Below are positions 3,579-56,720 of a stretch of 64,000 nt of DNA, in pieces. A program made the position numbers and the translations under genes. How positions within the stretch are numbered: the stretch's first letter is position 1; each line of letters begins with the position of its first letter. The notes beneath the pieces are model-generated. The model was not told where the DNA came from. It was given only the letters and a program-made list of their open reading frames with translations, and made no database searches. The DNA is from Ruditapes philippinarum (Eukaryota): assembly GCF_026571515.1 (NCBI RefSeq), contig NW_026851649.1, forward strand, positions 1 through 64,000. The letters run 5' to 3'.

Positions 3579-4481
3579 ATGGTACGAGACAGACTGAAAG
3601 AGTTACAGGAAAAACATGAACAATTTTGCAAGAATGACAACCACCAGACAGAAGGAGGTAAAATTGTCGCACGTTATTCAAACTCTGAAATACAACTTGA
3701 CTTATGTCTCCATAAAGTGACACAAATAAGTAAAAAGATAATCGCAATAACAAATGACGTAGAACATTTAGAGCACCTGCAAAAAGACATCATAGCAAAT
3801 CCATTATTAGATCACAACGAAGTTGTGCGGCTCGAAAGATCGTCTGATGTAATATTCAATACATCGGCTGCGATACAGAAAGAAATAAGTGAATATCGAG
3901 CAGAGGTGGTTCAGATGCAGATGCAAAAGTCTCACGAAATTGTGATTAAGAATCATCTAAACAAATTAGAAAGTGATTTAACAAAAGCGAGAAATGATTT
4001 CAGAGCGGCACAAGTAGATTATATAGAAAAGACCCAAAAATTACATCAGAGGGAGTACGACATAATGACAGGACATGATGATGATCACCATGACGACCAT
4101 GACAAAACCCACTCCCCATTACCTGCAGAGTTCCTAGGTGATTATTTTGTCCAGGCCGAGGATGCAAAAGCAGAACTACGTGAAATCAAGGCTAGAGATA
4201 AGCAGATAAAGAAAGTTGAAGAAAGCGTGATTCAAGTGAATCAACTATTTAAAGAAGTTAATAGTTTATTAAAAGAGCAAGGGGAAAAAATTGATACCAT
4301 AGAGAAACATGTGGAGAACAGTGTGGACTATGTGCAGGAAGCAAATGTTGGATTAAAGCAAGCAAAGAAATACCAGAAAATTACGAGGAAACATAAAATA
4401 TATTGTGTGGGTGTTTTAGTGGCTATATTAGCCGTTACTGTACTTCTTGTTGTCATAGTGATTACTTCTCAAACAGATTAA
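3579..4481 (+). CDS. Syntaxin-1-like Qa-SNARE (t-SNARE), complete and intronless, 300 aa, C-terminal TM anchor
   Basis: The N-terminus MVRDRLKELQ resembles syntaxin-1 MKDRTQELR. The SNARE motif IKARDKQIKKVEESVIQVNQLFKEVNSLLKEQGEKIDTIEKHVENSVDYVQEANVGLKQAKKYQKITRKHKI aligns with syntaxin-1A [72 protein letters not shown]. A hydrophobic tail IYCVGVLVAILAVTVLLVVIVI precedes the stop. The whole protein sits in one ORF. A (GTTT)n run and a TTCTTCCAG acceptor-like site lie upstream (3330-3385), so a 5'UTR intron is possible. Confidence 0.85.
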   Translation: MVRDRLKELQEKHEQFCKNDNHQTEGGKIVARYSNSEIQLDLCLHKVTQISKKIIAITNDVEHLEHLQKDIIANPLLDHNEVVRLERSSDVIFNTSAAIQKEISEYRAEVVQMQMQKSHEIVIKNHLNKLESDLTKARNDFRAAQVDYIEKTQKLHQREYDIMTGHDDDHHDDHDKTHSPLPAEFLGDYFVQAEDAKAELREIKARDKQIKKVEESVIQVNQLFKEVNSLLKEQGEKIDTIEKHVENSVDYVQEANVGLKQAKKYQKITRKHKIYCVGVLVAILAVTVLLVVIVITSQTD

Positions 4482-32657: not shown

Positions 32658-34517
32658 TTAATATTGTTTTTCAGTTCTCCAAAAAAACACTGTTTCTAAA
32701 TTATATGAGAAAACAATATTGATTGATAAAAGAAAAGAATGTAATTTTGACCATAAATTTTGTACAATAGTACATTCCCAAAAAAGATGGTAAAGCGTTT
32801 CTAAATTGCTACCACAAAAATCACATAGATTTGAATTACAAAGGCTATACTTAAATAACATTGTATTAGTTGGAATAAGTCTATGAATAAATTTGTATTG
32901 AAAATTTCTCAATGACACGTCTGTAGTACTTTTAAATGGAACCATATATATTTTTTGCCAATCCAACTCAGTTTCTATTTCTTTTTCCCATTTCTCTTCA
33001 TTTGTATTTTTGAACCTTTCATCATTTTCAAGTTGAATATTATATAAAAGCTTATTTGTAGATTTTGATTTTTTAACTTTATTTAGGAGTGTATCTTGTA
33101 CTTTGTTATAATTTCTTGTAGATTTCAGACTATTAAGATATCCTTTTGGTATATTATTCACAAGCGTGTAATATTTTAAAAACTCAGCATTTTCCATACC
33201 ATAGATATTTTTAAGGTCTTCAAATTTGTAGAGTTCATTTTTCCTATAATCATATAGATGTTCTAAATATAGAATACCTTTTTGATGCCATGTTTTATAG
33301 TACACCAATTTATTATCAATTTTAATATTCGAATTATTCCATATTATTTGTTTAAGGTTATCTTTTTTATTATTGTGTTCTTGTTGAATATGAAACCATG
33401 ACGAAAGCACATTGTTTACAAATGAATTATGAGGAAAAAGCTTATTGATATCTGATTTCGAAAGATTACAGTCAAATATAAGGTCATTTCCATATTGTTT
33501 TATCTTTTGATTTATAAAAAGTTTCCATAATCCTTTATTGTCCTCATTTATATATCGTTTGACCCAATTTGCCTTTACTGCATTTAAAAAATTATTAATA
33601 TCGATCATTTTTAAACCACCATTTTTAACATTAAGTTTTAATGTTTTACGTTTGATTTTTTCTGGCTTGCCATCCCAAAGAAACAAAAACATTGCTTTAA
33701 TTATTTCTTTTATCTTATTACTTGATGGGTTTTCTAAAACTGAAAATGGATACAACAGTTTAGGTAAGGCAAATGTTTTTATTACCATCACTTTACCCAT
33801 AAGGGTCAGTTTTCTGTGTTGCCATTGTTTTAAGCAAATAAAAAAGTTTCTTAGTTTTGGTTCTAAATTTATATCTGTATTTATTTTGTAATTAGACGAG
33901 AAAAGAATACCTAGAGTTTTTGCTGAATCAGATGTCCAATTGAATTTTTTATATTTACAATGTTCTATATCACTTTTTGTGAGCGATCCCACTCGTAGAA
34001 CTGTGGATTTTTTTGTATTAAGTTTTAAACCAGAGATTTTGCTAAATTCCGTTATGACATATACAAGTTTTTCAAAAGACTTCACTGATCCATCATTAAC
34101 AAATGTTGCATCATCTGCAAAAAAGGATTGCTTTATTGTTTTGTTCGCGATTTCTATTCCTTTAATTTCACTATCTTTTTCTATGAAATTTGATAATATT
34201 TCTATACATAAAATAAATAATGAAGATGATAATGGACATCCCTGACGTACTCCCCTTTCTATATTAAAAGACTCTGAAAAATGTCCATTATTGATAACTA
34301 TACTTGATATATCAGTATAAAAGATTTTAACCCATTTTATAAGATCTTTGCCAAAATTAAATTTATTCAGTGTATCAAATATAAATTGATGGCTTAGACT
34401 GTCGAATGCTTTTTCATAATCAGCAAAGAATAATAAACCCGGTTTATTTTCTTTCTGCAGATGTTCAATAATTTCAAAAATCAGCCTTACATTTTCACCA
34501 ATATATCTATTTTTCAT
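32658..34517 (-). CDS. LINE ORF segment 3: reverse transcriptase and C-terminal domain (619 aa open)
   Basis: GENVRLIFEI...YEKAFDSLSHQF...FADDATFVNDGS... Confidence 0.85.
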   Translation of the reverse strand: MKNRYIGENVRLIFEIIEHLQKENKPGLLFFADYEKAFDSLSHQFIFDTLNKFNFGKDLIKWVKIFYTDISSIVINNGHFSESFNIERGVRQGCPLSSSLFILCIEILSNFIEKDSEIKGIEIANKTIKQSFFADDATFVNDGSVKSFEKLVYVITEFSKISGLKLNTKKSTVLRVGSLTKSDIEHCKYKKFNWTSDSAKTLGILFSSNYKINTDINLEPKLRNFFICLKQWQHRKLTLMGKVMVIKTFALPKLLYPFSVLENPSSNKIKEIIKAMFLFLWDGKPEKIKRKTLKLNVKNGGLKMIDINNFLNAVKANWVKRYINEDNKGLWKLFINQKIKQYGNDLIFDCNLSKSDINKLFPHNSFVNNVLSSWFHIQQEHNNKKDNLKQIIWNNSNIKIDNKLVYYKTWHQKGILYLEHLYDYRKNELYKFEDLKNIYGMENAEFLKYYTLVNNIPKGYLNSLKSTRNYNKVQDTLLNKVKKSKSTNKLLYNIQLENDERFKNTNEEKWEKEIETELDWQKIYMVPFKSTTDVSLRNFQYKFIHRLIPTNTMLFKYSLCNSNLCDFCGSNLETLYHLFWECTIVQNLWSKLHSFLLSINIVFSYNLETVFFWRTEKQY

Positions 34518-34530
34518 AAAACCAGTTTGA

Positions 34531-35883
34531 TTAAAACTTATTATAGACGGCAGAACTTTTTTTTATTCTATTTGAAATTGTTTTTGTTGCAAGTTTATAA
34601 TCAACATTGAGCAAGCTTATTGGTCTCCAATTTGAAATATCTGTAAGATCTTTATCCGGTTTAGGAATAAGGGATATTATTCCTTGTCTTTGAAGTGTTG
34701 TTAATTTTGAAGTATCAAAAGAGTAATTAATGGAAGCTAGATAATAGTCTTTTATGCTATTCCAAAATAATTTATAGAATTCAACTGTTAAACCATCAGA
34801 TCCTGGACTTTTATTATTTTTCATTTCTGATAAAGCTATTTTACATTCATATTCATTAATTTTCCCTTCACATGTGATCTTTTCTTCTTCATTTAATAAT
34901 TTTATATCTGTATCAAAAAAATTAATATTTGAGTTTTGAGAAGTTCTATATCTATACAAACATTCATAAAAGGATTTTTCTTCTTTTAATATTTCTTTTA
35001 TTTCTGTTATTTCTTTATTTTCTACTTTTAATTTATGTATAACTTTTTTCTCGGCTTGTCTTTTTTCTAAGTTTGCAAAATATTTACTATTTTTTTCGTT
35101 ATGTTCTACATGAATAGCTCTTGCTCTTAAAATTGAGCCATTTACACGATATTCATAAATTTCATCAAGTTTTTGTTTTTTTAATAAAATTTCATTTTTT
35201 AACTTATTTTCATCTTCACTTTCTTTATAGGAATCAATTGTTAGTATTTTTTCTTCTAATTGTTTTATTTCATCGATCAAATTTAACTCTTGTTCTTTTT
35301 CTTTCTTTTTCTTAAAACTTGCATAACGTATTGTTTCATTTCTTATTGCACCTTTTATTATTTCCCACAAAGTATTTGGATTTGATGTTTTATTTATTTC
35401 TGCTGTTGTTTGAATAATTTCTTTAATTTGACTTTGATAAACTTCATCTAATAATAAAGCACTGTTCATTTTAAAGTATCCAGGTCCTTTTTGCATTGCA
35501 TTATCATTAAATGTCAAAGTAACTAGAGAATGATCTGTTTTAAAGCCATGTGAAATATTACTTTTTGAAATGATGTTTCTAAGCGAATCGGATATAAGAA
35601 AGTAATCAAGTCTACAGTATATGACTGGTTTTCCATTAGAGTGCCATGTAAATTGCCTCTTTTCAGGGTGTTTAAAACGCCAAATGTCAATTAGATTACA
35701 TGTTTCAATTATGTTTTTTATCTTATCTCTACATTTTCTACTTGTATGAAGATTTCCATTCTTTTTATCCAAAGATGTATTAATTACTGTATTGAAATCG
35801 CCACCGATTAAAATGTTCTTGTCGTCATTTTCAAGAATAAACTTTTCAAGTATATCAAAAATATATATGTTATCATCATTTGG
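34531..35883 (-). pseudogene. LINE ORF segment 2: AP-endonuclease C-part, linker and RT N-terminus (same frame as segment 1; ends at homopolymer frameshift)
   Basis: ...GGDFNTVINTSLDKKNGN...YCRLDYFLISDSL...ISNWRPISLLNVDYKLATKTISNRIKK. Confidence 0.75.
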
Positions 35884-36222
35884 TCAATAAATATTAATCA
35901 TTGTGAAATCCTTGTCATTTATTTTTACATCAATCATTATTAATTTTCCTATAATCAATTCTTTTTTATTTAAAATTTTAATATTACAATCGTTTTTAAT
36001 CAAAAATGCAACGCCTGCTTTGTTAGATTTATTTCCACTGAAAAAATGTGTGCCATTCCATTCATTTTTCAAAGGTTCATATGGATTTGTTAAGTGGGTT
36101 TCTTGTAACATATAAATAGAATATGGTTGTGAATCCAGCCAATTAAATAATTGTTTTCGTTTTTGACTATTTCCTAACCCTCTAACATTTAAAGTAATTA
36201 TTGTAGTTTCCATGAAGAGCAA
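35884..36222 (-). CDS. LINE ORF segment 1: AP-endonuclease N-terminal part (ends at in-frame TGA)
   Basis: MLFMETTIITLNVRGLGNSQKRKQLFNWLDSQPYSIYMLQETHL... Confidence 0.8.
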   Translation of the reverse strand: MLFMETTIITLNVRGLGNSQKRKQLFNWLDSQPYSIYMLQETHLTNPYEPLKNEWNGTHFFSGNKSNKAGVAFLIKNDCNIKILNKKELIIGKLIMIDVKINDKDFTMINIY

Positions 36223-41800: not shown

Positions 41801-42889
41801 AACAGCATGCTTAATCTTAAATTTCCTGTTACCATGGCAACGGGGGACATCTCAAAATTGCCAAAATCACTATTTTGCATTGTTTTTTCCATCAAAACTG
41901 TTTTCAAAGTTTTGCAACTTCTCAATGGATTGAGATAGAGTAAAAGGCTTATCAGTGTTGGTGACACGTTACCTTACGATCGACCTAAGGCCATTTTTAG
42001 CCTGTCACATGTCCTAAATTTTCAGGGAAATGAGAGGGGCTGCCGCCCCCTTCAAATCCCCGAAACTGAAGGGGGGTACATTCCCCTTCTGGCAACCCCT
42101 TGATGTACATTTTAAATAGTGGGCGCCGCCGAAAAAGTGATCCCTTTTTTATCAACATTTCTCAAACTAAAAACAGTGTTTGGGGCCTAACTAGAGCATA
42201 TTTACACTGTTTGATTCCTGAAAGGAGGGGGGGGGGGGCGAAAAGTCATCAAAACACGTCTATATGAGATTAAGAGGTTTATTGGTAATGTTGTTTATAT
42301 TCATATAAAAGTATGTTTTCAAATGAATAAAGAATTAAAGTTAAAAAAATACGTAACATTTTTTAAATCAGGTTATACTATTTATTAACATTTTTACTAA
42401 ATACTTTACTTAATCTTAATATATGTAATATTACATGTAGCTTGTCATGTGGTTCAGTACTATCCCTTTACATAAAAAGTCATATGAGTGTGTGGATTAG
42501 TTGGAAATCAGTAACGTATTTATCTGTTTTACAAAGAAAGCGAAATTTGATGAAGATAATGAATTTCGATTATTAAAGGTGTTCATCTAATAAAAAGGGG
42601 CTTGAATGAAGTTTTGGCCTCCATTACTCCGTTATCTCTGTTTAACAAACTCAATGAAACCGAATTTTGCAGCTTTAAACTACTTGCTTTTGCTTTTATT
42701 GCTCTTAAAGGATCTGCCCTTTCCAGAATTTTATTTATATTGGAGTTCTACTATAATAGAGAAAATCAGAATCCCTAAAGAAAGGCCAACACAGCAAAAT
42801 AGAAAATGTTGCAGGTTCGGTTTGATTGAGACTGTACATGCACGGTACTGGAAAGTGCATGTTACCGTCCACGCCCCTAGCACCGGCTT
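38871..42889. mobile_element. 4.0-kb element bounded by ~75-bp terminal inverted repeats, no transposase ORF (non-autonomous DNA transposon candidate)
   Basis: Left end AAGCCGGTGCTAGGGGGCGTGAGGGATGTTGCACTTATTCATTATCCCTCATGTACAGACTCATTCACACCGAG. The reverse complement of 42806-42889 reads AAGCCGGTGCTAGGGGCGTGGACGGTAACATGCACTTTCCAGTACCGTGCATGTACAGTCTCAATCAAACCG. No clear TSD is visible. Confidence 0.5.
42290..42590. repeat. Left unit of a ~1.8-kb tandem segmental duplication (partner at 44078-44385)
   Basis: About 300 bp at ~90% identity (TTGTTTATATTCATATAAAAG(T/C)ATGTTTTCAAATGAATAAAGAATTAAA...GTGTTCA). The downstream motif CTTAAAGGATCT(G/A)CCCT(T/C)TCCAGAATT is also duplicated at 42706 and 44546. 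Confidence 0.8.
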
Positions 42890-44077
42890 TAAAAGAATTC
42901 TACATTTAATAATGGTAATGATGAAATTTAAAATTTAGAAACCTCCGCAGATGTGTACATACGGTGGTTATTATGGAACCTTCAATATGTCACGGTACTG
43001 CAATGTCATGAAAAGCGGCGTATGGCCCCCAAGTAAAGGAATGCGTGTGCTGTAAGCGAGAAATCAATTAGCGGAACTAAATAAAATAAAATTTTGGAAG
43101 GGGATCTGAGGTTATGAAACTTGCATATAACAGACAAGACTTAAAAAGACAAAACCGTCAATTAAAAGACAAAACTAAATTAATTATTCTTTTCTATGTC
43201 ATTTGTTGAGCCTTACGTCTTATGTATTATAATGTAATTTATATTTCACCGGGTATTTTCATTAATATACAAAATTGAAAAAAGGAATCAGAAAGTCTAA
43301 TTTAAAATTTGTATGTGAAATATTGAAACGAAAAGAACGCATTTGTATGTGCCAGGTACCAGTCCGAGTTGCAAACCTCATCAGTCAGTCAATCTCGTCT
43401 GAAAGATATGATCATTTATTTGGACAGCAACATCAATATTTTTCTCCATTTACTGGTCTCATTGGCCTCCCATGCATAACAAAAGTAAACATCACTTAAT
43501 CGACTTACATACATATGTAATATCATTCAATGAAATACTAAATTCAAAATTTATAGGTTACCTTTTGGCAGGTAAAATTCGGGTCGGACCTTGGATCCGT
43601 ATCTACATGACTTTATAAATGCAATTCCATATCACTTTAGTCCCAAATACATTTATGCAGTTCATATGGTATTTTATATTATTTTGTATTATTCTTTATT
43701 TTATTTGAATCTGTATTTTATCTTATTTTGTTTTATTCTTAATTTTATTCCTTATTTTTTTTGAATCTGTATTTATTTATTTTTGACACAGCAATAAAAA
43801 AATGAAGTTAATCTCCTGCCAAAAATAATGGACAAGACAACTGATAAATACGTATTAATGTAAAGCATGCATAAGGAACGGGAAAATATTGTTTAATTAT
43901 TGTTTTATAAAGTTTGCCCTCTCATAATTGTCATTCTTTCTCATATTTTATTTTGGTAGTATCTCAAAAAGCATAATATTTTAGTATTAAACCTGTGTCA
44001 AATGTGTGTGCACTTGAATTTGTAATTGCTTGTTACATAAATTTTATGAGCTCTTATTGTTTTGTTATTTGTTAATG

Positions 44078-44385
44078 CTGTTTATATTCATATAAAAGCA
44101 TGTTTTCAAATGAATAAAGAATTAAAATTGAATTAATTACGTAACATTTTTTAAATCAGGTTATACTATTTATTAATCTTTTTACTAAATACTTAACTTA
44201 ATCTTAATATACGTAATATTACATGTAGCTTGTCATTAATTTAGTTCAGTACTATCCCTTTACATAGAAAGTCATATGATTGTGGTGTGGATTAGTTGGA
44301 AATCAGTTACGTATTTATCTGTTTTACAAAGAAAGCGAAATATGACGAAGATAATTTATTTCGATTATTGAAGGTGTTCACCCAA
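44078..44385. repeat. Right unit of the tandem segmental duplication
   Basis: See 42290-42590. Confidence 0.8.
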
Positions 44386-45272
44386 TTTCGCCGCCACCGA
44401 TAGAGGGCGCTTTGACGTCATAGTAACGCTATTAATTTTAAAAATAATGCCGCAGAAGTAAAGCTTACTTATCTACATATTTTATACCAAAAATCATCAA
44501 GATCTGAGATGTTGTCAACTTTCGGTCGGAAAGAAGCGAGCTACCTTAAAGGATCTACCCTCTCCAGAATTATATTATAAAAATTCAACAGCAAAGGTCT
44601 ATAAAGGACAGAATATAATTTTATGACAAATTGATATAATCATGCCTACAAGGTAATTTACATCTGCATTGAAATTATTCAAAACATCTGACATCTGATG
44701 TCACTATAATATCTACATAACTTTATACATATCATCTGATTTACTTAATTACCTTTGACCTGTAGATAAATTAAATATTTTGAGATAACAGATATTTTAA
44801 AAACTATCATTTTAATACCTATTAGATATTGTTAGGGAATCTGCGTAGACAGTAACTTGGGCAAAGCAGAGATAAATCCGATCGAAGAAAACTAGGCAAC
44901 GACAAGGTACACGCTTTACTTGACTTTTTATTGTTGCTTTCTTTTTTCCGGACATGATCAATAATTGTTTTACCTAAATTGATTTAATTCAAGAATTATT
45001 GGATTTTAGAATTTTTAGATTTAATAAAAGTTATGGAAAACAATGTTTGGAATTCAAGCCTTCAATGTAATCAAATTCATAACAAATACAATTTTATTGT
45101 CATCTGCTAACTTGTATTAAGCAGTTTACATTTTTTATTTTATTCCTTTCATTTATTTATTATGGTGTTTATTTTTAACTTATTTTAATTATTTTTCCCA
45201 ATTACCACTTACCTTGATCAATTTCCTATTTTCTGATCAAATCATACGGACCTTTTTGTGTTGTAGGCAAAT

Positions 45273-45401
45273 ATGTTCTACAATCTAGCAAAATTGACGC
45301 TTATCACTTTAGTTTCGAACTACATCGATGCATATGAATTTAAGATTGATCTTCCAGATAGTGCGAAGTCTGAAATTGAAACATGCATTCAAAGGTCTAG
45401 A
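45273..45401 (+). CDS. Tyrosinase-like gene exon 1 (start codon, signal peptide)
   Basis: MFYNLAKLTLITLVSNYIDAYEF... has a hydrophobic N-terminal signal. Donor is TCTAGA|GTAAGT. Confidence 0.6.
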
Positions 45402-45655
45402 GTAAGTTTAACTCTATTTATCTATATTTATTTATTACAAAAAGTAGCATCAATCTGTTTTGATATTCTTAAATAAGTAATGATAAGTTAAAATACGTAC
45501 ATCTTACTTACAGTGTGAGATTGCTATGTCCATAAACAGGTATCTCCTATAATATAATCACATAAATATTATAATTATTATTTTGATAATTGTAAAGTAT
45601 TGTTCCAACAAAGTGTCTGTATCAAGTAATTATCATTTTAATTTATGATTTAAAG

Positions 45656-45777
45656 ATGTCACCGGCTATAGATCGGCAAGCAGAAATGGCTTGTGGCCAT
45701 GAATATTTCGAGAAACTTGGGCCAAACAATCTTACAGATGATGATTGGGCAATTTTTGAAGAAGTGAAGGATGACAG
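45656..45777 (+). CDS. Tyrosinase-like gene exon 2
   Basis: Acceptor is TTTAAAG|ATG and donor is GACAG|GTTCTT. Translation MSPAIDRQAEMACGHEYFEKLGPNNLTDDDWAIFEEVKDD. Phase 0 to 2. Confidence 0.5.
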
Positions 45778-45909
45778 GTTCTTATAACATTCTATAAATA
45801 TTCTAAACATCTGATCATATATTTGTTGTTATTATTATTATCATTATTACATTTACTTTCAAACCTTGGTCATTCAATTGACGTATATCTCACATTGTTG
45901 CAATTTTAG

Positions 45910-46018
45910 TTTCGGCCACACGCCTCCATCCTTTGGCATAAGCATAAGACGAGAAGTTCGCACATTGTCAGAGGTCGAATGGCAAAATGTGGTAGACGTT
46001 TTCCGAGAATTATACGAT
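45910..46018 (+). CDS. Tyrosinase-like gene exon 3
   Basis: Acceptor is AATTTTAG|T and donor is TACGAT|GTAAGT. Translation (S)FGHTPPSFGISIRREVRTLSEVEWQNVVDVFRELYD matches the conserved tyrosinase R.E.R.LS..E...f..A motif. Confidence 0.65.
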
Positions 46019-46907
46019 GTAAGTCTAGTTCCAAAGTTATTGATCTCATAGATATCCTTTGTTTAAAACCAGGAATATTTCACCGAGCATAATTTCGTGA
46101 ACACTTATAAATGCTACAATTCCTAGGAATTCGATTTTCAATGCCAAATTTGAGATGATTAATAATGCAAAAGATGATGCTATGGTTAAAAAAGTGTCGT
46201 TTTAAACATGAAAAATGCCATTTGCTAAATGTAATTACACACAGCTGTACACTTTTATTACAGTTCTCGGTATATTCGTTACAATGAAGAAATTTAACAG
46301 CAAAACATATACATTTATAAAACTTTTATAACATAATATTTTACTCCTGAAATCAAAGTTTTCTTAGTTTAATCATTGCACTTTTTAATTAAAAGTAGGC
46401 CAATAAAACATAAGAACTATGAAAAGTTTAAACGAATTCTATTTTACAATTTTCGTTTTGCCTTTATGTCAAGATATGTTACAATTATAACATTTAAATA
46501 TGGTATGTTGTTAAGTCGTTTCTGAACTAATATCCTTCACAATATTTCTAGATATTTTATAAATATTTTTATTTGAACTATAGAACGTTCTAATTTTCAA
46601 AACGTGAACAATATTTTTATTTATAGGTATGATACAGGATAAGAACAAAATGTACAGTATTCAGAGCATTTTTTGTGAATTTATATTTCATATTCTTATC
46701 ATAGGGTGTATATAGGGTTATAGAATTTTAAGCAATCGTATTTCCTTTGAAATGTTGCTCCTTCAAATAGAAACATTTTAAGGATAGCTACATTTGCAAG
46801 TGCATTTGTGTTGCCTGTGTGAAAGAATATTTCATTCTCAAATAATTCTTATCATTTGGCATTTTAATGTTGTACTTATTTATCAAGCACCTTTCTCTTC
46901 CTTGCAG

Positions 46908-47008
46908 ACAGGAGTTCTTCAATCATTTGGACGTTTGCATGGGAAGGTGAAATTAAGGGCTCACAAGGGAGGTGCATTTTTACCATGGCACCGGGTCTTC
47001 CTTGCTCA
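46908..47008 (+). CDS. Tyrosinase-like gene exon 4: CuA copper-binding site
   Basis: Acceptor is TTCCTTGCAG|ACA and donor is GCTCA|GTAAGT. Translation TGVLQSFGRLHGKVKLRAHKGGAFLPWHRVFLA has three His with the tyrosinase CuA spacing (H..., AH, FLPWHR). Confidence 0.8.
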
Positions 47009-47183
47009 GTAAGTAATAGGCTTCGAAAATCTGTCTTGAATAATTCTAAATGAATTTTGAAATGACAGATTTATTGTTTTAAATTCTTTAACAAAACAGG
47101 ACATTGTTCTAATTTCCTTGAGATAATAATAAGATGGAGACTCCACTTGTTTATGCCCTTTTATGATATTTTTAACATTGAAG

Positions 47184-47457
47184 CTTTGAACAAGAAATGA
47201 AGAAAATTAACCCGAGTGTATCCTTACCTTACTGGGACTATACAATTGACACAGAAATAGTTCAACCTTTTGAAGCTGTGTTGTGGACGCCATGCTTTTT
47301 TGGAGAAAAAACCGGTACTGTCAGATCAGGTTCTTTCAAATTAATGTACGGTGCTCATGGCTCCGTTCTGTCGAGGAAACTGGCGGATAAGGCATATTCT
47401 ACAAGGTTGATCAACAAAAGAGACATTCAAAACTTAAAAGGGTTTTGTAGTTTTAAG
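47184..47457 (+). CDS. Tyrosinase-like gene exon 5
   Basis: Acceptor is ACATTGAAG|C. The split codon CA+C gives His. Donor is TTTAAG|GTATGT. Translation (H)FEQEMKKINPSVSLPYWDYTIDTEIVQPFEAVLWTPCFFG... PYWDW/Y is the canonical tyrosinase motif between CuA and CuB. Confidence 0.75.
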
Positions 47458-47914
47458 GTATGTGATTATTTGATAATATTTACAATTCCATATGGACAGC
47501 TAATATTTTATCATTCGAAGATTGGCAATAAAAATCATTTATATTCAATATTTAATTGTTCGTCACCGATTTATGTGTTTGCTAAGACAATCATTAAGTT
47601 TTATACATAGTTAGATATTAGTAATACAATCTTTTTTTTACGAATATCTGTTGATATTAATGCCTAGATAAAGATATTCAAAATGTGTACAATGGGTGTC
47701 ATTGAAAAAAAACCATATAAAACTGCTTTGTTGGAGCTAGGAAAATTATAGTAACAAAGTCTATCACATCTGAATAAAATAAAGAAATGGTATGATTAAA
47801 CATGGCGATTGTATTAAGACATCCAAACATTTTGATCTGGCAGGTGCAGATATCATATGGCTCATATAATCTCGTGACAAAGTACAGTAAAAAAACAGTA
47901 TCTGTTTATTTTAG

Positions 47915-48102
47915 GACATAACAACGGGCATTTTAGAAGATAAAAATGAACGTAATCTTGAAACTCTACACGATAGCGTACATGACTACATTGGAGGAGA
48001 TATGGGTGTTGTTGAAAACTCGGCGTACGATCCGATATTTTGGTTTCATCATGCATTTATTGACTATATATGGGAGTCATTTAGGGAGCATCAGACAGAA
48101 AA
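47915..48102 (+). CDS. Tyrosinase-like gene exon 6: CuB copper-binding site
   Basis: Acceptor is TGTTTATTTTAG|GAC and donor is GAAAA|GTATAT. Translation DITTGILEDKNERNLETLHDSVHDYIGGDMGVVENSAYDPIFWFHHAFIDYIWESFREHQTE matches the CuB signature H..H.Y.GG.M......DPiFw.HH..vD. Confidence 0.8.
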
Positions 48103-49238
48103 GTATATATCTATTTGAGGTTTCTGTGTTATGTCAACGATGTCAGTGTATATGAAAACTTTAATTTCTACAAGTGCAACGAAATAGAGGATATTTGTTT
48201 GTTTGTGTGTAAGATGAAATTTTATTTCATCGAGTGAGCTTTAAAAACAGTATTCTCACGAGTGGCGTAAAATTCTCACAAGATTAAAGATTACATCTTA
48301 CACAACAAACAAACAAATATTCTTTTTATTTTGTGCTTAAAAACAAGTTTAAATTAATTTCCTGAATATCAACTTGAATATTAAAATCTGTTTCCTCAAC
48401 TTGTAGCCTCGATTTCAGACAAAATTCTCATAAATAAAAGTAGTCTTGAGCTAAAAAATAAGTTTAAATATCATAAGAAGGAATACTTACTCGTGGATTG
48501 TAGAAAACAATAATTAATTGTTGACATATGCGCATTCATTCAATAAGCGACTAGGAAATTTGAAGACAGGAATTATTTGAAAGACTGTCTCATGAACGTT
48601 TGGTTATTTACTCATCCTTCGGGGGGCAGATGACTGTCATTGATTTTACTCAGTTTTACAGTTATTGCTAGTAAGACCTAAGATATGCCAAAATGTCATC
48701 AAGAGCACCTTTGCATGATGTGTAATTAACAGACAGTTACGAAAAAAAATTAAAAAAAGGTAGAGCGGTAAATTGAATGAAGTGAAGTATGTTTTCTCTC
48801 TTTGATAACGTTTGAAATTTAATTTACTTATCAATTACAGCTTTGCTTTGCTCTAATCAGTCCTATATATGTTAGAATTATAAGAATAAATTGAAGTGAG
48901 GTACCACATGGGGAAAATCTTAAGAAATAGTCTCTTCATTGAAAAGTGTGAAATTATATTATGATAATTTTCACTTTGAAATTATCAAATATGATTTTCA
49001 CGGATAAACCAGTTATCCACTCAAAAGCATAAAATAAATGTATGTAATTCATTGTTGATTTGTGATAAAAAAAATGATGAAGAAATAGCTCTACTTTGTC
49101 AATGATTCTTTAGCAAATTGCATTTTTAAAGTATTAAGTGTACGAAACATTTATTTTTCAGGTATTACTTTCCGTCTACAATTCCGAAACTATAGAACTT
49201 TTTGCTGTATTGTTATAATCGTTATAGTATTATTTTAG

Positions 49239-49660
49239 TTGTGGCCACATAGACATTGAAACAGATTACAGGCCAAAAGATGACATTGGATGGAAGAACA
49301 TTATAGGACAAGGCCACGAAGATGCATTATTTGGTTATAGCCACTTGAAGACAGTAGATGGACTCTGGCGGAATTGGACACAAATGTTTTATAAATATGA
49401 GCCCCAACCTGCCTGTGACAGTACGTGCAGTGGAGAGTATCTTTACTGCGATGACCAAAAACGATGTTTATCTCGAACAGTAGAGGCTTGTAAAAAGGAA
49501 TTCTCGACACGAAATAAACGTGAAGTGAATGTCACAGATCAGCTTGTACCACAAATACCTTGTGAATCTGGGACGAAAATAGTAGGTCTTAAAGGCGACG
49601 GTAGGACAATAAAAACATCTAAAGAGGAATGTGAAAAGATTTTGCAAAGCAAAGAACAGA
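49239..49660 (+). CDS. Tyrosinase-like gene exon 7: Cys-rich C-terminal ectodomain
   Basis: Acceptor is TATTTTAG|T and donor is GAACAGA|GTAAGT. Phases are consistent with exons 6 and 8. Translation ...DGLWRNWTQMFYKYEPQPACDSTCSGEYLYCDDQKRCLSRTVEACKKEF... Confidence 0.65.
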
Positions 49661-50077
49661 GTAAGTCTTTCATTGCCCTTTTTTTATTTAAATTTGTTTG
49701 ACATGCAAAGGTTTCTAATACATTAAAAATAATCGAAAAAAGTTTTTTATCCAATGCAATAAACTGACAATTCTTCGTAAAATGCAGAGAATTTGCTTCC
49801 ATTAGTACAATTCAAAATCTATCAATGATATGTCAAACGTTTTATATAAACGAGGGTATTAAGAATTGATCATTTTTACAAAACAAGGTCCAAATACCTT
49901 TTTTTATACGAAGAATCACCATTTCAGTTTATGTTACCTAAATTTGTATCGCATTACAGATAGTTTTCTAAAAGAGATCTAAAATTAAGTAAAGTATATT
50001 GTTTGACACTTGCTTATGTATTTTTACTGCCATGCCAAATTATTTCATTATAAGATATTTTTGTTACAATTTTATAG

Positions 50078-50208
50078 TTGCAGAAGAACCCAGACAGGAA
50101 GAAAGTAAAAATACATCTGCTAAAAATTTTGGATTTGTTACACTTGGAGCGGTTGCTTCTATTGGATTTGTAGTAATAGTGAGGCAAATTAGAAAGAGAA
50201 GGAGTTAA
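50078..50208 (+). CDS. Tyrosinase-like gene exon 8: transmembrane anchor, short basic cytoplasmic tail and stop
   Basis: Acceptor is TTTTATAG|TT. Translation (I)AEEPRQEESKNTSAKNFGFVTLGAVASIGFVVIVRQIRKRRS* has a hydrophobic 18-residue helix followed by RQIRKRRS. Confidence 0.65.
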
Positions 50209-50344
50209 CTATGATAATATAACTCGCAAATGAATTATTTTCATCTTATCTTTGATAATGTTGTACATACAAGAAATATTTAACACGTGTTAATCCGATC
50301 TATCTCGACAAGCCAATCATATGAATTTAATTTTGCATGCTCCG

Positions 50345-50392
50345 GATTTATGAACTTTGGTGTGTGCGTGCGTGTGTGTGTGTGCGTGTGTG
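50345..50392. repeat. (GT)n/(GTGC)n microsatellite
   Basis: GGTGTGTGCGTGCGTGTGTGTGTGTGCGTGTGTGTAT read directly. Confidence 0.9.
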
Positions 50393-51304
50393 TATATTGT
50401 TTTTCCCATTTGTTTGGTTAGCTGTTAATGATGTCTGACATAATGTCCGGTTTCTTATATGTAAATTTATAATTGTATGTTAAGGTGCAAGAGCTATATT
50501 TACATTGAGACGCAATTTTGAATGAACAGAAACCGATATCTAAAATCATATTAAAACAGCTAAGTTTTGTGCAATTCTTAAAACTGGCTTTTTTAGGTAT
50601 TTACTATTTTTGTTATGGTTGTCACACATTCGTGAGAAATCTTGTGTGAGGGCTTCATCTAGTTACAAATGTCTTTGTCAACAGCATTAGCAAAGTGTTT
50701 GGTAAAATTCGTGAATGATGGTAAATCCTAATCAATAAACATGTATGTATTTTAATACTTTGACTTATGTATTCATTATTTTCCTCATTGTAAATAGTTT
50801 TAATAAAGTCTCTACAAGTCTAGTGTCTGTTTTTTGTAGTAAAAAAACTACAATTCCTAGTTCTAAGCAACTTAATTTTGCTCTCCATATTTCATTTAGT
50901 GTAGTTAATTTTGCTCAACGAGTAAGTTAATCTTTGTGAGAAAAGCACAGAACAAATAAAAATCTTAATGCAGATGCGCCAAAAGGCAATATCATTTTAA
51001 ATCTATCAAATTAGACCTGAAATTTGTAAAAAGTACTATGGCCTCTTTCATAATTAATACTGACTTTTGAAGTGTTTGTAATATCTGGTAACGTTATCGG
51101 GTCAGGTCCAAATCAATTGCAGCGCGAAACATTTATGCAGTTTGTAGAGTGTTGTTATATTGTACTGGTGCACCGAGATCATTGATCCTAGCACATTTAG
51201 TTGTGAAAGTTGAACATCGCAGGCTTGAGAGGTGTTTTCACGTTAACATTACCTCTCTTTAACAGATAATTTATTCCAGCAATTTTAGTGTTGAAGATTG
51301 AATT

Positions 51305-53949: not shown

Positions 53950-56720
53950 TTTCTTAAACGAGTATGATGTACTGTAGAGAAGCGTTCACCTTTAATGAAA
54001 AATGAAGGAACCGATGGGGATTTAAATATTTTTTTAATGTTTGCTTTAAAGGAACGGAGGGATTCTGATTCACGTATTTTAATTGGAAGTTTATTCCATT
54101 GTTGTAGTGCTGATGGTAAAACGGATTTCGAAAAAATGTCTGTTCTTCTGACAATTGATGCTTAGTCTTTACTGTTTGTTAAAGAATATGGGTTTTCATG
54201 TGCATATTTCACAGATGGGGGAAATAATTGCATTAAATAAAGTGGTACCTAATAAATTGTTTTTGCCTTTGTATATTAAAAATAATTTTTGAATATGTCT
54301 CCCATCTGAAAGCGAAACCCAACCTATTTCTGTTAATAATGTTTGTATAGTAACGGATTTTGTCAATTCTGTAACAACACTGGCAGCTTCATATTGATAT
54401 TTTTCTAATGTTTCTTTCTCGTATTGCGCACAGTTATCACAGACTAACGATGAGTATTCTAAATGTGGACGTAAATATGATACATATATATTATTAAGTG
54501 ATTCTCTTTTAATTTTGAATTTGAGCATTTTCATGGAACCGAGTATTTTAGAGGCTTTAGATACTATGTTAGATATATGTTGATGCCAAGACCAATCTTG
54601 ACTAAATGTGACCCCAAGATGTTTATGATGTTTGACAAAATTGAGTTGTACATTATCAAAAAATAATTGTGTATGATCATATTAAAAAAAAATTAAAAAA
54701 AGATTGCTTCGGTTTTTGCCGAATTGAAATTGACTAACCATTGCTTAGACCATCTTGTTATTGTCGCTAGATCCTTTTTTAACGTTTCTTCCATAAAGGT
54801 TATGTTTTTTGAGGACACAGAAAGAGAACTGTCGTCTGCGAAAAAAAGAGTCTAGTAATACTTAAGAGTGAGTCTGCTATGTCATTGACATATATTAAAA
54901 ATAATAATGGACCAAGTACTGAGCCTTGAGCAACGCCCCCTTCTAAAGAAGAAAATGTCAAAGATACGAAAACTTTTTGGGTTCTGTTATTTAAGTAGTC
55001 TTTTAACCATGTATTTAGTTTCCCTTGTATACCGTATTGCTTTACTTTGAAGATAAGACCAGAATGCCAAACTCTATCGAATGCTTTAGAAATGTCACAA
55101 AAAATAACACAAGTAGATTCTTTGCTGTCAAATGTTTTGCAAATTTGGTTATATATATCAATAAGTTGATACTCTGTAGAATGACCTGGCATAAACCCGG
55201 ATTGATTTTGATATATTAAAGAATTTGTATGGAGATAATTATAGAAATGTTTAAAAATTATGCGTTCCATTATTTCACCAACACAGCTTATTAATGAAAT
55301 TGGTCTATAATTTGATGGTTCGTCTTTATTAACCTTTTTAAAAAGAGGCATAACATGTACCAGTTTCCAACTGCTAGGATAATAACCTTCATTTTACGAA
55401 TAATTAAAAAGTATAGACAGTGGAATAAGTTTCTTTCAACATTTTATGGCTTATTTCGTCTAGTCCAGAAACTTTATTTATAACTAAATTTGTTAATACA
55501 TCTTTTATTTCTTGTTCACAAACATTAAAGTTTTCTAGTCTTGAATTTGCATTAAAACTAAAGTCTTGAAGTTGGGTATGTGAATCATCCAACTGTGAGA
55601 TTGAACTGAAGAAGGAGTTTAAAGTATTGGCTTTGTCTAAGTCTGATAAGGAGAATGTGTCATTATTATTTCTTAAAGGTGGTATAGAATCGTTTTCAGC
55701 TGAATTATTCTATCTAACATTTTAACTTTTTTCCAATATTGTCGAGGGTTTGAGCTATTGAGATCATGCAAAGAAAATTCTTAACTATTGTATAATAACT
55801 CTTTTGCGTTTTTCCGTTTTTCTTCATATTGTTTACTTTGTTTCGAATGTGTTTATATTAAGTCCAATCTGATGTTTTATTACTGTTTATTGCCTTGTGA
55901 AATAATCTGTCTCTCTGCCTTAAGCTTTTACGAATATTTCTGTTAAACCATGGCTTATCTTTTGGCCAAATTAATGCAAAATACGACGGGATGCACTGAT
56001 TAACTAAATCCATGAATTCTGATGTAAAAATATTGCAAGCTTCATTTATATTTTAATTATTAATAAAGGTCCAGTCAGTATCTCTTATTAAATTATTGAG
56101 TTTAACAAAATCTGCTTTTTTATAGTTCCAAATTTTCCTTTTAAATTTGAATCGAAATCAACCTTTAAATAAGCTAATGTTTCATAATGGTCACTTATTT
56201 CATTATCTGTTTCAAAAACTCCTGAATCAAAAACTTGAATATTGTTTGTTAATGCGATAGGCTCGAGAAGAGTTTGCGAATTATGGATTACCCTAGTCGG
56301 GCTATTAATAATATTTTTCATGCTATTTGTCAACAGTGTTTCTTTCAATTTATGATTTTGCATCTTGAGCTGATTTTCATTTACATCTCCTACTAATATT
56401 AAGTGTTGTTTGTGTTCCAGAGCCATTCCTAAGCATGAGTTTAATTTGTCCAAAAAGTCAAATCTATACTGAGGAGGTCTATATAATGACATAATTTAAT
56501 AAGTCTGATTTTTATCTTTTATTTCAACCCAAATAGAATCAGGAACTATATTTTCAAAGGAGACAACGCAATTGGGTCTAAGAAAAGATGAAACGTAAAC
56601 AAGAATCCCTCCCGAGCGACACGACTTATCTTTACGAAACATTAAATTAAAACCCGATAATTGTAATTCTTTATCTTCAATATTAGAATCTAATTTGGTC
56701 TCAGTAAAACATAACACATA
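53950..56720 (-). pseudogene. Degenerate CR1/L2-like LINE copy (APE + RT, multiple frameshifts)
   Basis: Minus-strand ORF fragments are APE at 56717-56088 (LCFTETKLDS..., LILVGDVNEN). RT lies at 55592-54800 (NYRPISLISCVGEIMERII...SKAFDRVWHSGLIFKVKQYGIQGKL...GVAQGSVLGPLLFLIYVND). The RT tail lies at 54534-54196 (RPHLEYSSLVC...LEKYQYEAASVV). Confidence 0.75.

Follow-up and report, generated by a model that had tools for sequence, protein, structure and literature searches.

Tyr-3 of Ruditapes philippinarum, a mollusc alpha-lineage tyrosinase with a predicted membrane anchor

Mollusc tyrosinases are usually described as members of the secreted alpha subclass (PMC3658974, PMC4003781, PMC11667028, PMC6831834), and the gamma subclass is defined by a signal peptide, a Cys-rich region and a transmembrane (TM) segment (PMC3658974, PMC4003781). 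The distance between the first and second histidines of the CuA copper site (His1-His2) is 7–9 in mollusc type a and 16–24 in chordate type g (PMC11803259). Here, we describe tyr-3, a gene of the clam Ruditapes philippinarum that lies on contig NW_026851649.1 of assembly GCF_026571515.1 and was analysed within the first 64,000 nucleotides of the forward strand (the window). Its product reads as an alpha-lineage tyrosinase, and it is predicted to end in a membrane anchor of the kind by which the gamma subclass is recognised.

The anchored tyrosinase and its lineage

Three-frame translation of the DNA and joining of the open pieces gave eight GT-AG coding exons (1476 nt, encoding 491 amino acids (aa) and a TAA stop) in AT-rich animal DNA (~31% GC in the window). 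A database search matched the product over its full length, at 100% identity, to the 491-aa NCBI entry named 'putative tyrosinase-like protein tyr-3 [Ruditapes philippinarum]' (P0001), and the intact tyrosinase gene at this locus is already annotated by NCBI. The public model is the same as the 8-exon splice model proposed in an earlier note on this DNA, including the junction of exons 1 and 2 that the note had doubted. No further tyrosinase copy was found within the 64-kb window by tblastn.

The catalytic domain was matched by Pfam PF00264 at aa 126–303 (E = 1.5e-33; score 117.5 bits, cut-off 22.6), the sole Pfam family found in the protein. The CuA ligands H131, H139 and H148 lie within ...LHGKVKLRAHKGGAFLPWHR, and the CuB ligands H264, H268 and H291 lie within ...LHDSVHDYIGGDM...DPIFWFHH. 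All six copper histidines of the two sites read by the earlier note were thus found, and those of CuB are nearly invariant among 38 aligned homologs. The N-terminal 122 aa and the C-terminal 185 aa matched no Pfam family, the lone hit there, to Cys_box, being non-significant (E = 0.36). The Cys-rich region that had been pointed out in the note is present as eight Cys between aa 309 and 439. Furthermore, conservation of the N353-W-T sequon (18 of 22 aligned sequences) and of eight Cys fits a lumenal or extracellular catalytic domain. Judged from its sequence, tyr-3 belongs to the type-3 copper phenol oxidases, or tyrosinases, and among them to the mollusc alpha / type a lineage; its enzyme activity is predicted.

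The strongest hydropathy peak of the protein (score 2.08; Kyte-Doolittle, 19-residue window) falls at aa 465–483, in a hydrophobic stretch (FGFVTLGAVASIGFVVIV) that is followed by RQIRKRRS, with five of its eight residues basic, and then by the stop. AlphaFold2, run with 38 homologs, gave a mean predicted local distance difference test score (pLDDT) of 85.4 and a predicted template modelling score (pTM) of 0.82. It folded aa ~26–399 into a single compact body and placed an N-terminal helix at aa 2–19 and a further helix at aa 461–490. Confidence was low at aa 16–25, 400–410 and 452–465, with a pLDDT below 50 in the first two of these segments. The N-terminus aligns with clear signal peptides of paralogs, with which it has the ending NYI(Q/D)A^Y(Q/E)F (caret, cleavage point) in common, the cleavage-like site of tyr-3 being I-D-A^Y. 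The hydropathy peak, the helix and the basic tail bear out the single TM helix and basic tail of the earlier note, and the predicted anchor supports its view that the protein differs from the secreted form usual for mollusc tyrosinases. Overall, a type-I single-pass topology is strongly predicted, with a signal peptide, a lumenal or extracellular domain, a C-terminal helix and a cytoplasmic basic tail.

How widespread is the anchor? A HMMER scan of 1.8 billion representatives returned 6922 relatives, 119 of them with E < 1e-30, and scoring of C-terminal hydrophobicity placed anchors mostly in the nearest relatives and rarely elsewhere. In a neighbour-joining tree of 155 tyrosinase domains (285 columns), rooted on fish TYR, tyr-3 belongs to a 25-member clade (bootstrap 100/100) made up of Ruditapes, Mercenaria, Dreissena and Mya sequences and transcript contigs. 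Relative to the fish TYR outgroup, the clade falls among the mollusc representatives, and its named members are all Neoheterodontei (Venerida, Myida). A C-terminal anchor is present in 19 of the 25 members compared with none of the 27 sequences in the next three outgroup layers. Full-length TM-bearing relatives of 507–521 aa sit on Logan contigs of 1.76–2.46 kb, which leave no room for introns. These contigs therefore represent spliced messages of related species in which catalytic domain and anchor are joined.

The distribution of these sequences places the origin of the anchor within the mollusc radiation, as a shared trait of the Venerida and Myida clade, and, with that origin, its likeness to the TM anchor of vertebrate TYR/TYRP would be convergent. 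Among the Mya and Dreissena members, P0016, P0019, P0022, P0023, P0025 and P0039/P0193 have a hydrophobic end without a cytoplasmic tail that resembles a glycosylphosphatidylinositol (GPI)-attachment signal. In view of these GPI-like ends, membrane attachment itself appears to be the conserved feature of the clade.

Could tyr-3 be a true gamma-subclass tyrosinase of the vertebrate, melanosomal type (TYR, TYRP1, DCT) that was retained in bivalves? A signal peptide followed by a Cys-rich part and a TM segment fits the architecture-based definition (PMC3658974, PMC4003781): the predicted C-terminal TM domain, with a signal peptide, agrees with the gamma subclass, and the hydrophobic helix and basic tail depart from the 'secreted, no TM domain' description of the alpha subclass. 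On the other hand, the CuA His1-His2 spacing is 8 in tyr-3 and in 21 of the 25 clade members, not 16–24 (PMC11803259), and it is 23 in fish TYR. The Cys-rich part follows CuB, and no EGF-like Cys cluster was found N-terminal to CuA, a region in which tyr-3 has C38 and C56 alone, compared with 10 Cys in the first ~115 aa of the fish TYR P0038. Moreover, the clade nests among unanchored mollusc tyrosinases, and the tail RQIRKRRS contains no di-leucine [DE]xxxL[LI] melanosomal signal.

The nearest solved structures argue in the same direction. By sequence (phmmer against PDB), Bacillus megaterium tyrosinase matched the whole domain (aa 122–302, ~4e-25) and mollusc hemocyanin units were strong matches, both far above human TYRP1 (1e-8), whose match was limited to 44 residues (aa 132–175). 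By fold, the target-normalised TM-score was 0.78 for the B. megaterium enzyme and 0.47 for TYRP1. We consider a retained gamma tyrosinase to be extremely improbable. Because of the CuA spacing, the phylogeny, the nearest structures, the placement of the Cys-rich part, the tail without a di-leucine signal and the lack of a Pfam match to the extensions, the vertebrate-like topology is best read as convergent and not inherited. Consequently, the likeness to vertebrate melanosomal tyrosinase drawn in the earlier note survives as a predicted type-I layout but not as shared descent. With its predicted anchor and basic tail, tyr-3 would be a variant of the alpha / type a class.

Tail signal, proposed topology and soluble forms

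Tails with a Y-x-x-hydrophobic (YxxPhi) motif carry signals that are read by adaptor complexes (clathrin adaptors) for endocytosis and for delivery to the lysosome or to lysosome-related organelles. The LAMP1 tail GYQTI is such a Tyr-based signal, and its position is typical of lysosomal membrane proteins. A Y-x-x-hydrophobic ending is present in most close relatives of tyr-3, no more than two residues from the C-terminus (RYDNVD, KYENLQ, KYDNVK, PYSTL, GYNNI, NYNKI and PYRRV in the aligned relatives). Their short, basic tails with a Y-x-x-[VLI] ending (GYNNI, NYNKI, PYSTL, RYDNVD) resemble LAMP1-type GYxxPhi tails, a likeness of motif class only, and in tyr-3 itself the motif has fallen out of frame. 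The frame is shifted by a single additional T at 50205/50206 (AGT^T^AAC), which makes an early stop eight residues past the helix; on frame translation, AGTTAAC with one T fewer reads on into a tail typical of the family.

With the restored-tail peptide as the query, we retrieved a 913-bp contig (Ga0499543_0570322, here L001) from JGI metagenome 3300049158. It covers window positions 49500–50420, that is, exon 7, intron 7 and exon 8 of the same locus, with 97% identity, and differs from the window by several single-nucleotide polymorphisms and indels in the intron and by two residue changes in exon 8, one from R to I and one, within the helix, from S to A. Its exon 8 open frame and AG acceptor are intact. 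By this comparison, L001 is a second, independent allele of the tyr-3 locus, read as clam host DNA in the metagenome. Both the extra T and the out-of-frame N-Y-D-N-I recur in L001 (at about 700–735), and an assembly error as the cause of the truncated tail was rejected, since this independent contig is 3% diverged and has the same extra T. The 1-nt insertion by which the Tyr-based tail signal was lost in this copy is thus real, being shared by the two alleles. A (GT/GC)n microsatellite at 50360–50393, likely in the 3' untranslated region, differs in length in L001.

We favour, with moderate confidence, the explanation that tyr-3 is a type-I membrane tyrosinase of the alpha lineage, with a convergent anchor that is clade-wide and a tail signal that was lost in this copy. 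It is built on the observed gene structure, family, copper ligands, hydrophobic anchor, clade membership and frameshift. The signal peptide would take the protein into the endoplasmic reticulum, and the catalytic globule (aa ~26–399), with its two copper sites, conserved disulfide Cys and conserved N-W-T glycosylation sequon, would be turned towards the lumen or the outside of the cell. Between the globule and the C-terminal helix, which is encoded by its own last exon, would come a disordered linker and then a short stalk, and the 8-residue basic tail would lie on the cytoplasmic side. As the 1-nt insertion removed the Y-x-x-hydrophobic signal, the enzyme would be expected to stay at the cell surface or in the secretory-granule membrane and not to be routed to endolysosomal organelles. 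In this explanation, it is the trafficking, the substrate and the tissue that we infer.

Several observations weigh against it. The signal peptide is the weakest element: the one claimed in the earlier note aligns with paralog signal peptides, but its hydrophobic core, LTLITLV, is short, and its best 12-residue window scores 1.34 compared with 1.9–3.0 in most full-length relatives. Together with the truncated tail, this weakness could mean that the copy is decaying. The tree was built by neighbour joining on 285 columns and not by maximum likelihood. In addition, a conserved R-x-x-R motif could mean that the mature enzyme is perhaps not membrane-bound, and the NCBI model of a paralog (P0005) has no anchor exon and ends in a read-through (...RKSKSLQYPSF) equivalent to one that is open to tyr-3.

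The R-x-x-R motif is a candidate furin-type proprotein-convertase site, R399-N-K-R402. Of the 12 closest relatives, 11 carry an R-x-x-R aligned with it (such as RNKR, RKKR, REKR, RNAR, RVLR, RFSR and RVSR) within an otherwise variable linker, and in the AlphaFold2 model the tyr-3 site lies in the sole internal segment with a pLDDT below 50 (aa 400–410), between the globule and the membrane-proximal module. If a membrane-anchored precursor were cut after R402, in the trans-Golgi or at the surface, a soluble globule (aa ~22–402) would be released, for example for periostracum or shell-matrix tanning, and the anchor would serve sorting or latency alone. Soluble shell-matrix tyrosinases are indeed found in molluscs (PMC4003781, PMC8217771). 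On the other hand, the Dreissena and Mya members retain just one Arg at the site, and the conservation of the GDGRT module and of the Tyr-based tail motif suggests a separate function for the anchored part. Judged from its conservation, the site might allow release of the ectodomain, but we think it rather unlikely that shedding yields the mature enzyme. Such shedding overlaps with the favoured type-I membrane explanation and differs from it in the mature form alone.

A soluble product would also result if the anchor were unused in vivo, the main product ending after exon 7 by read-through or alternative poly(A) as an ordinary secreted alpha tyrosinase. Reading on into intron 7 adds a short peptide and a stop (Table 1), and the P0005 model terminates in the homologous read-through, so that soluble isoforms may exist. 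However, the NCBI model of the tyr-3 gene contains exon 8, whose frame and AG acceptor are kept in the independent allele L001. Anchors are, moreover, conserved across Venerida and Myida, and intron-free transcript contigs of relatives carry the TM segment. An unused anchor is therefore quite improbable in our view, and a tyr-3 transcript ending after exon 7 may occur as a minor isoform of the membrane-anchored type-I enzyme that we favour.

Gene structure and the 5' region

The positions of the coding exons, of the predicted protein elements and of the upstream repeats are collected in Table 1.

Table 1. Features of the tyr-3 gene and its 5' flank (positions are those of the window; caret, predicted cleavage point)
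Feature	Position	Strand	Content	Basis
Upstream direct repeat, copy 1	42282..42591	+	~315 bp	blastn
32-nt box, copy 1	42704..42735	+	CTTAAAGGATCTGCCCTTTCCAGAATTTTATT; 112 nt downstream of repeat copy 1	blastn
Upstream direct repeat, copy 2	44069..44386	+	ends 887 bp upstream of the ATG	blastn
32-nt box, copy 2	44545..44576	+	91% identical to copy 1; 158 nt downstream of repeat copy 2	
Coding exon 1	45273..45401	+	aa 1-43; start ATG, predicted signal peptide, conserved Cys38	splice model, NCBI identity
Predicted signal peptide and cleavage point	in exon 1		MFYNLAKLTLITLVSNYIDA^YEF	alignment with paralog signal peptides; AlphaFold2 helix 2-19
Coding exon 2	45656..45777	+	aa 44-83 and two bases of codon 84; Cys56, N68-L-T sequon	splice model, NCBI identity
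Coding exon 3	45910..46018	+	last base of codon 84 to aa 120	splice model, NCBI identity
Coding exon 4	46908..47008	+	aa 121-153 and two bases of codon 154	splice model, Pfam
CuA site	46938-46994	+	H131, H139, H148; in exon 4; His1-His2 spacing 8	
Coding exon 5	47184..47457	+	last base of codon 154 to aa 245; invariant PYWDY motif	splice model, homolog alignment
Coding exon 6	47915..48102	+	aa 246-307 and two bases of codon 308	splice model, Pfam
CuB site	47969-48052	+	H264, H268, H291; in exon 6	
Coding exon 7	49239..49660	+	last base of codon 308 to aa 448 and first base of codon 449; in order, C-terminal globule extension (conserved Cys367/378/384/392, N353-W-T sequon), disordered linker, conserved GDGRT module	
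Candidate furin-type proprotein-convertase site	49510..49521	+	R399-N-K-R402; between globule and GDGRT module	
Intron 7 start, read-through	49661..49701	+	adds 13 residues, SKSFIALFLFKFV; stop at 49699-49701	open reading frame listing
Coding exon 8	50078..50208	+	last two bases of codon 449 to aa 491 and stop; encodes stalk, TM helix, tail	
Predicted TM helix	50128-50181	+	F466-V483	hydropathy, AlphaFold2 helix, anchor kept in homologs
Tail	50182-50205	+	RQIRKRRS; then TAA at 50206-50208	
Out-of-frame tail relic	50207..50233	+	AAC TAT GAT AAT ATA ACT CGC AAA TGA = N-Y-D-N-I-T-R-K-stop	

Two side observations concern the gene itself. A 137-aa open reading frame (ORF) in the database (P0047) is 98% identical to exon 5 and the intron-5 read-through of the tyr-3 gene, with two coding differences, one in exon 5 (E to K) and one in the read-through, and probably represents another assembly or allele of the locus. 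Intron 6 contains, at 48187–48324, an imperfect inverted repeat with arms of ~30 nt (GAGGATATTTGTTTGTTTGTGTGTAAGATG / CATCTTACACAACAAACAAACAAATATTC) that lie ~77 nt apart, similar to a miniature inverted-repeat transposable element.

An acceptor-like sequence, ttgtgttgtag^GCAAAT (caret, splice point), with a pyrimidine tract and AG, stands six bases before the ATG, in the region 45255–45272, and a candidate non-coding first exon lies at 44830–44908, with a donor AAG^GTACAC at 44907/44908. Because of the pyrimidine tract and AG just before the ATG, a non-coding first exon is probably present upstream, possibly ending at 44907/44908. If it is so placed, the gene would have at least nine exons, and its promoter would lie about 250–750 bp downstream of the second copy of the upstream repeat.

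The earlier note had described this 5' flank as a tandem duplication of ~1.8 kb. A repeat of ~315 bp and a 32-nt box are real, the two copies of the repeat being 90.3% identical over 318 columns (blastn, E = 1e-121), but the rest of the two '1.8-kb units' gave no blastn alignment even with 9-nt words. About 19% of each unit (~0.35 kb) is shared, and 1.79 kb is the spacing between the copies, not the length of the repeat. No third copy of the 315-bp repeat was found within the window by blastn, and exact-word scans (39-mer, 23-mer) of the metagenome collection containing this locus did not find the repeat, a weak negative.

Is the repeat a duplicated regulatory block, which the earlier note had suggested as a possibility, or is it the leftover of an old local duplication, or a short low-copy element, without a regulatory role? 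The shared part amounts to ~315 bp and 32 nt, with a sharp 3' edge and flanks that cannot be aligned; the window holds no third copy, the metagenome exact-word scans were empty, and a MITF-type word occurs at chance frequency. On the other hand, copy 2 stands ~0.9–1.2 kb ahead of the ATG, a position at which a promoter-proximal element is conceivable, and the 90% identity between the copies exceeds that of the unalignable surroundings. We put the absence of a regulatory role at slightly better than an even chance.

Two candidate identities were tried and rejected. A long terminal repeat (LTR) element or terminal-repeat retrotransposon in miniature (TRIM) does not fit: clean TG...CA ends are missing, the would-be target-site duplications do not match (ggtaa compared with cccaa), and neither a primer-binding site following copy 1 nor a polypurine tract preceding copy 2 was seen. 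An MITF M-box, TCATGTG, is present in copy 1 alone, and the word occurs at chance frequency in the window (9 seen, 10.6 expected). Separately, a perfect palindrome resembling a cAMP response element, TGACGTCA, was seen at 44418–44425, in a 158-nt segment that is unique to copy 2 and absent from copy 1. An AT-rich tandem array (43670–43773, period about 22–27, ~3.5 copies) lies between the repeat copies.

Elsewhere in the window, an uninterrupted 300-aa ORF at 3579–4481 (+) contains a SNARE domain (E = 1.4e-12), matches Syntaxin weakly and has a hydrophobic C-terminal end; it is apparently an intronless syntaxin-like gene or retrocopy. On the minus strand, a non-LTR retrotransposon with Exo_endo_phos, reverse transcriptase and zf-RVT domains, split by frame breaks into three ORFs, occupies 32658–36222, and further reverse-transcriptase fragments lie at 54196–56492.

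Significance and comparison with known tyrosinases

A well-supported clam clade with a membrane anchor and a Tyr-based sorting motif would be misfiled as gamma-type by architecture alone. If the anchor and the motif work as they do in other animals, they would point to compartmentalised phenol oxidation in bivalve cells, which, if true, bears on the making of shell pigment and periostracum, and the paralogs with and without the sorting signal form a natural experiment. With the gene already annotated and its biology inferred, we rate the value of the locus as moderate. A bolder proposal, which we hold to be doubtful, is that Neoheterodont bivalves (Venerida, Myida) independently evolved a melanosome-style tyrosinase, with LAMP-like YxxPhi sorting to a lysosome-related pigment or tanning organelle and optional furin-type release, tyr-3 being a tail-truncation variant re-routed to the surface or the secretory pathway. 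If it were true, the vertebrate gamma architecture would be a recurrent solution, and the architecture-based alpha/gamma classification would break down.

The closest described relatives are the mollusc alpha / type a enzymes, such as Pinctada fucata PfTy and R. philippinarum tyr9. They have the same Pfam domain, a CuA spacing of 8–10 and an N-terminal signal peptide like the one predicted in tyr-3, share with tyr-3 the C-terminal extension to ~aa 390 with its conserved Cys, and are the sequences among which tyr-3 nests. These enzymes are described as secreted and without a TM segment (PMC4003781, PMC11667028, PMC6831834), whereas the tyr-3 clade has, in addition, a linker, the GDGRT module and a stalk that precede a TM helix (in some members a GPI-signal-like end) and a short tail.

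A C-terminal TM segment is also present in two other mollusc type-a proteins, Mytilus edulis tyrosinase-like protein 2 (P0117) and Octopus vulgaris tyr-1 (P0043), and the Mytilus tail ends in SYSKI, a Y-x-x-hydrophobic end as in the relatives of tyr-3. However, both proteins lie far from the clade in the tree (distance 1.57–1.65, with other nearest neighbours), and neither has the GDGRT module. As far as the tree and the sequences indicate, their anchors probably arose independently of that of the clade.

The best solved match to the catalytic core, the tyrosinase of Bacillus (Priestia) megaterium (PDB 3NM8, 4P6R; Foldseek E ~1e-13, 25% identity), is a soluble bacterial enzyme without a signal peptide, a Cys-rich extension or an anchor. 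Vertebrate tyrosinase and TYRP1 (gamma, type g; PDB 5M8L) are like tyr-3 in their type-I topology, predicted in the clam protein, but unlike it in having an EGF-like Cys cluster before CuA and a CuA spacing of 23 compared with 8. Furthermore, the vertebrate-type tail carries a di-leucine signal (ERQPLL in the fish P0038), whereas the tyr-3 family has YxxPhi instead.

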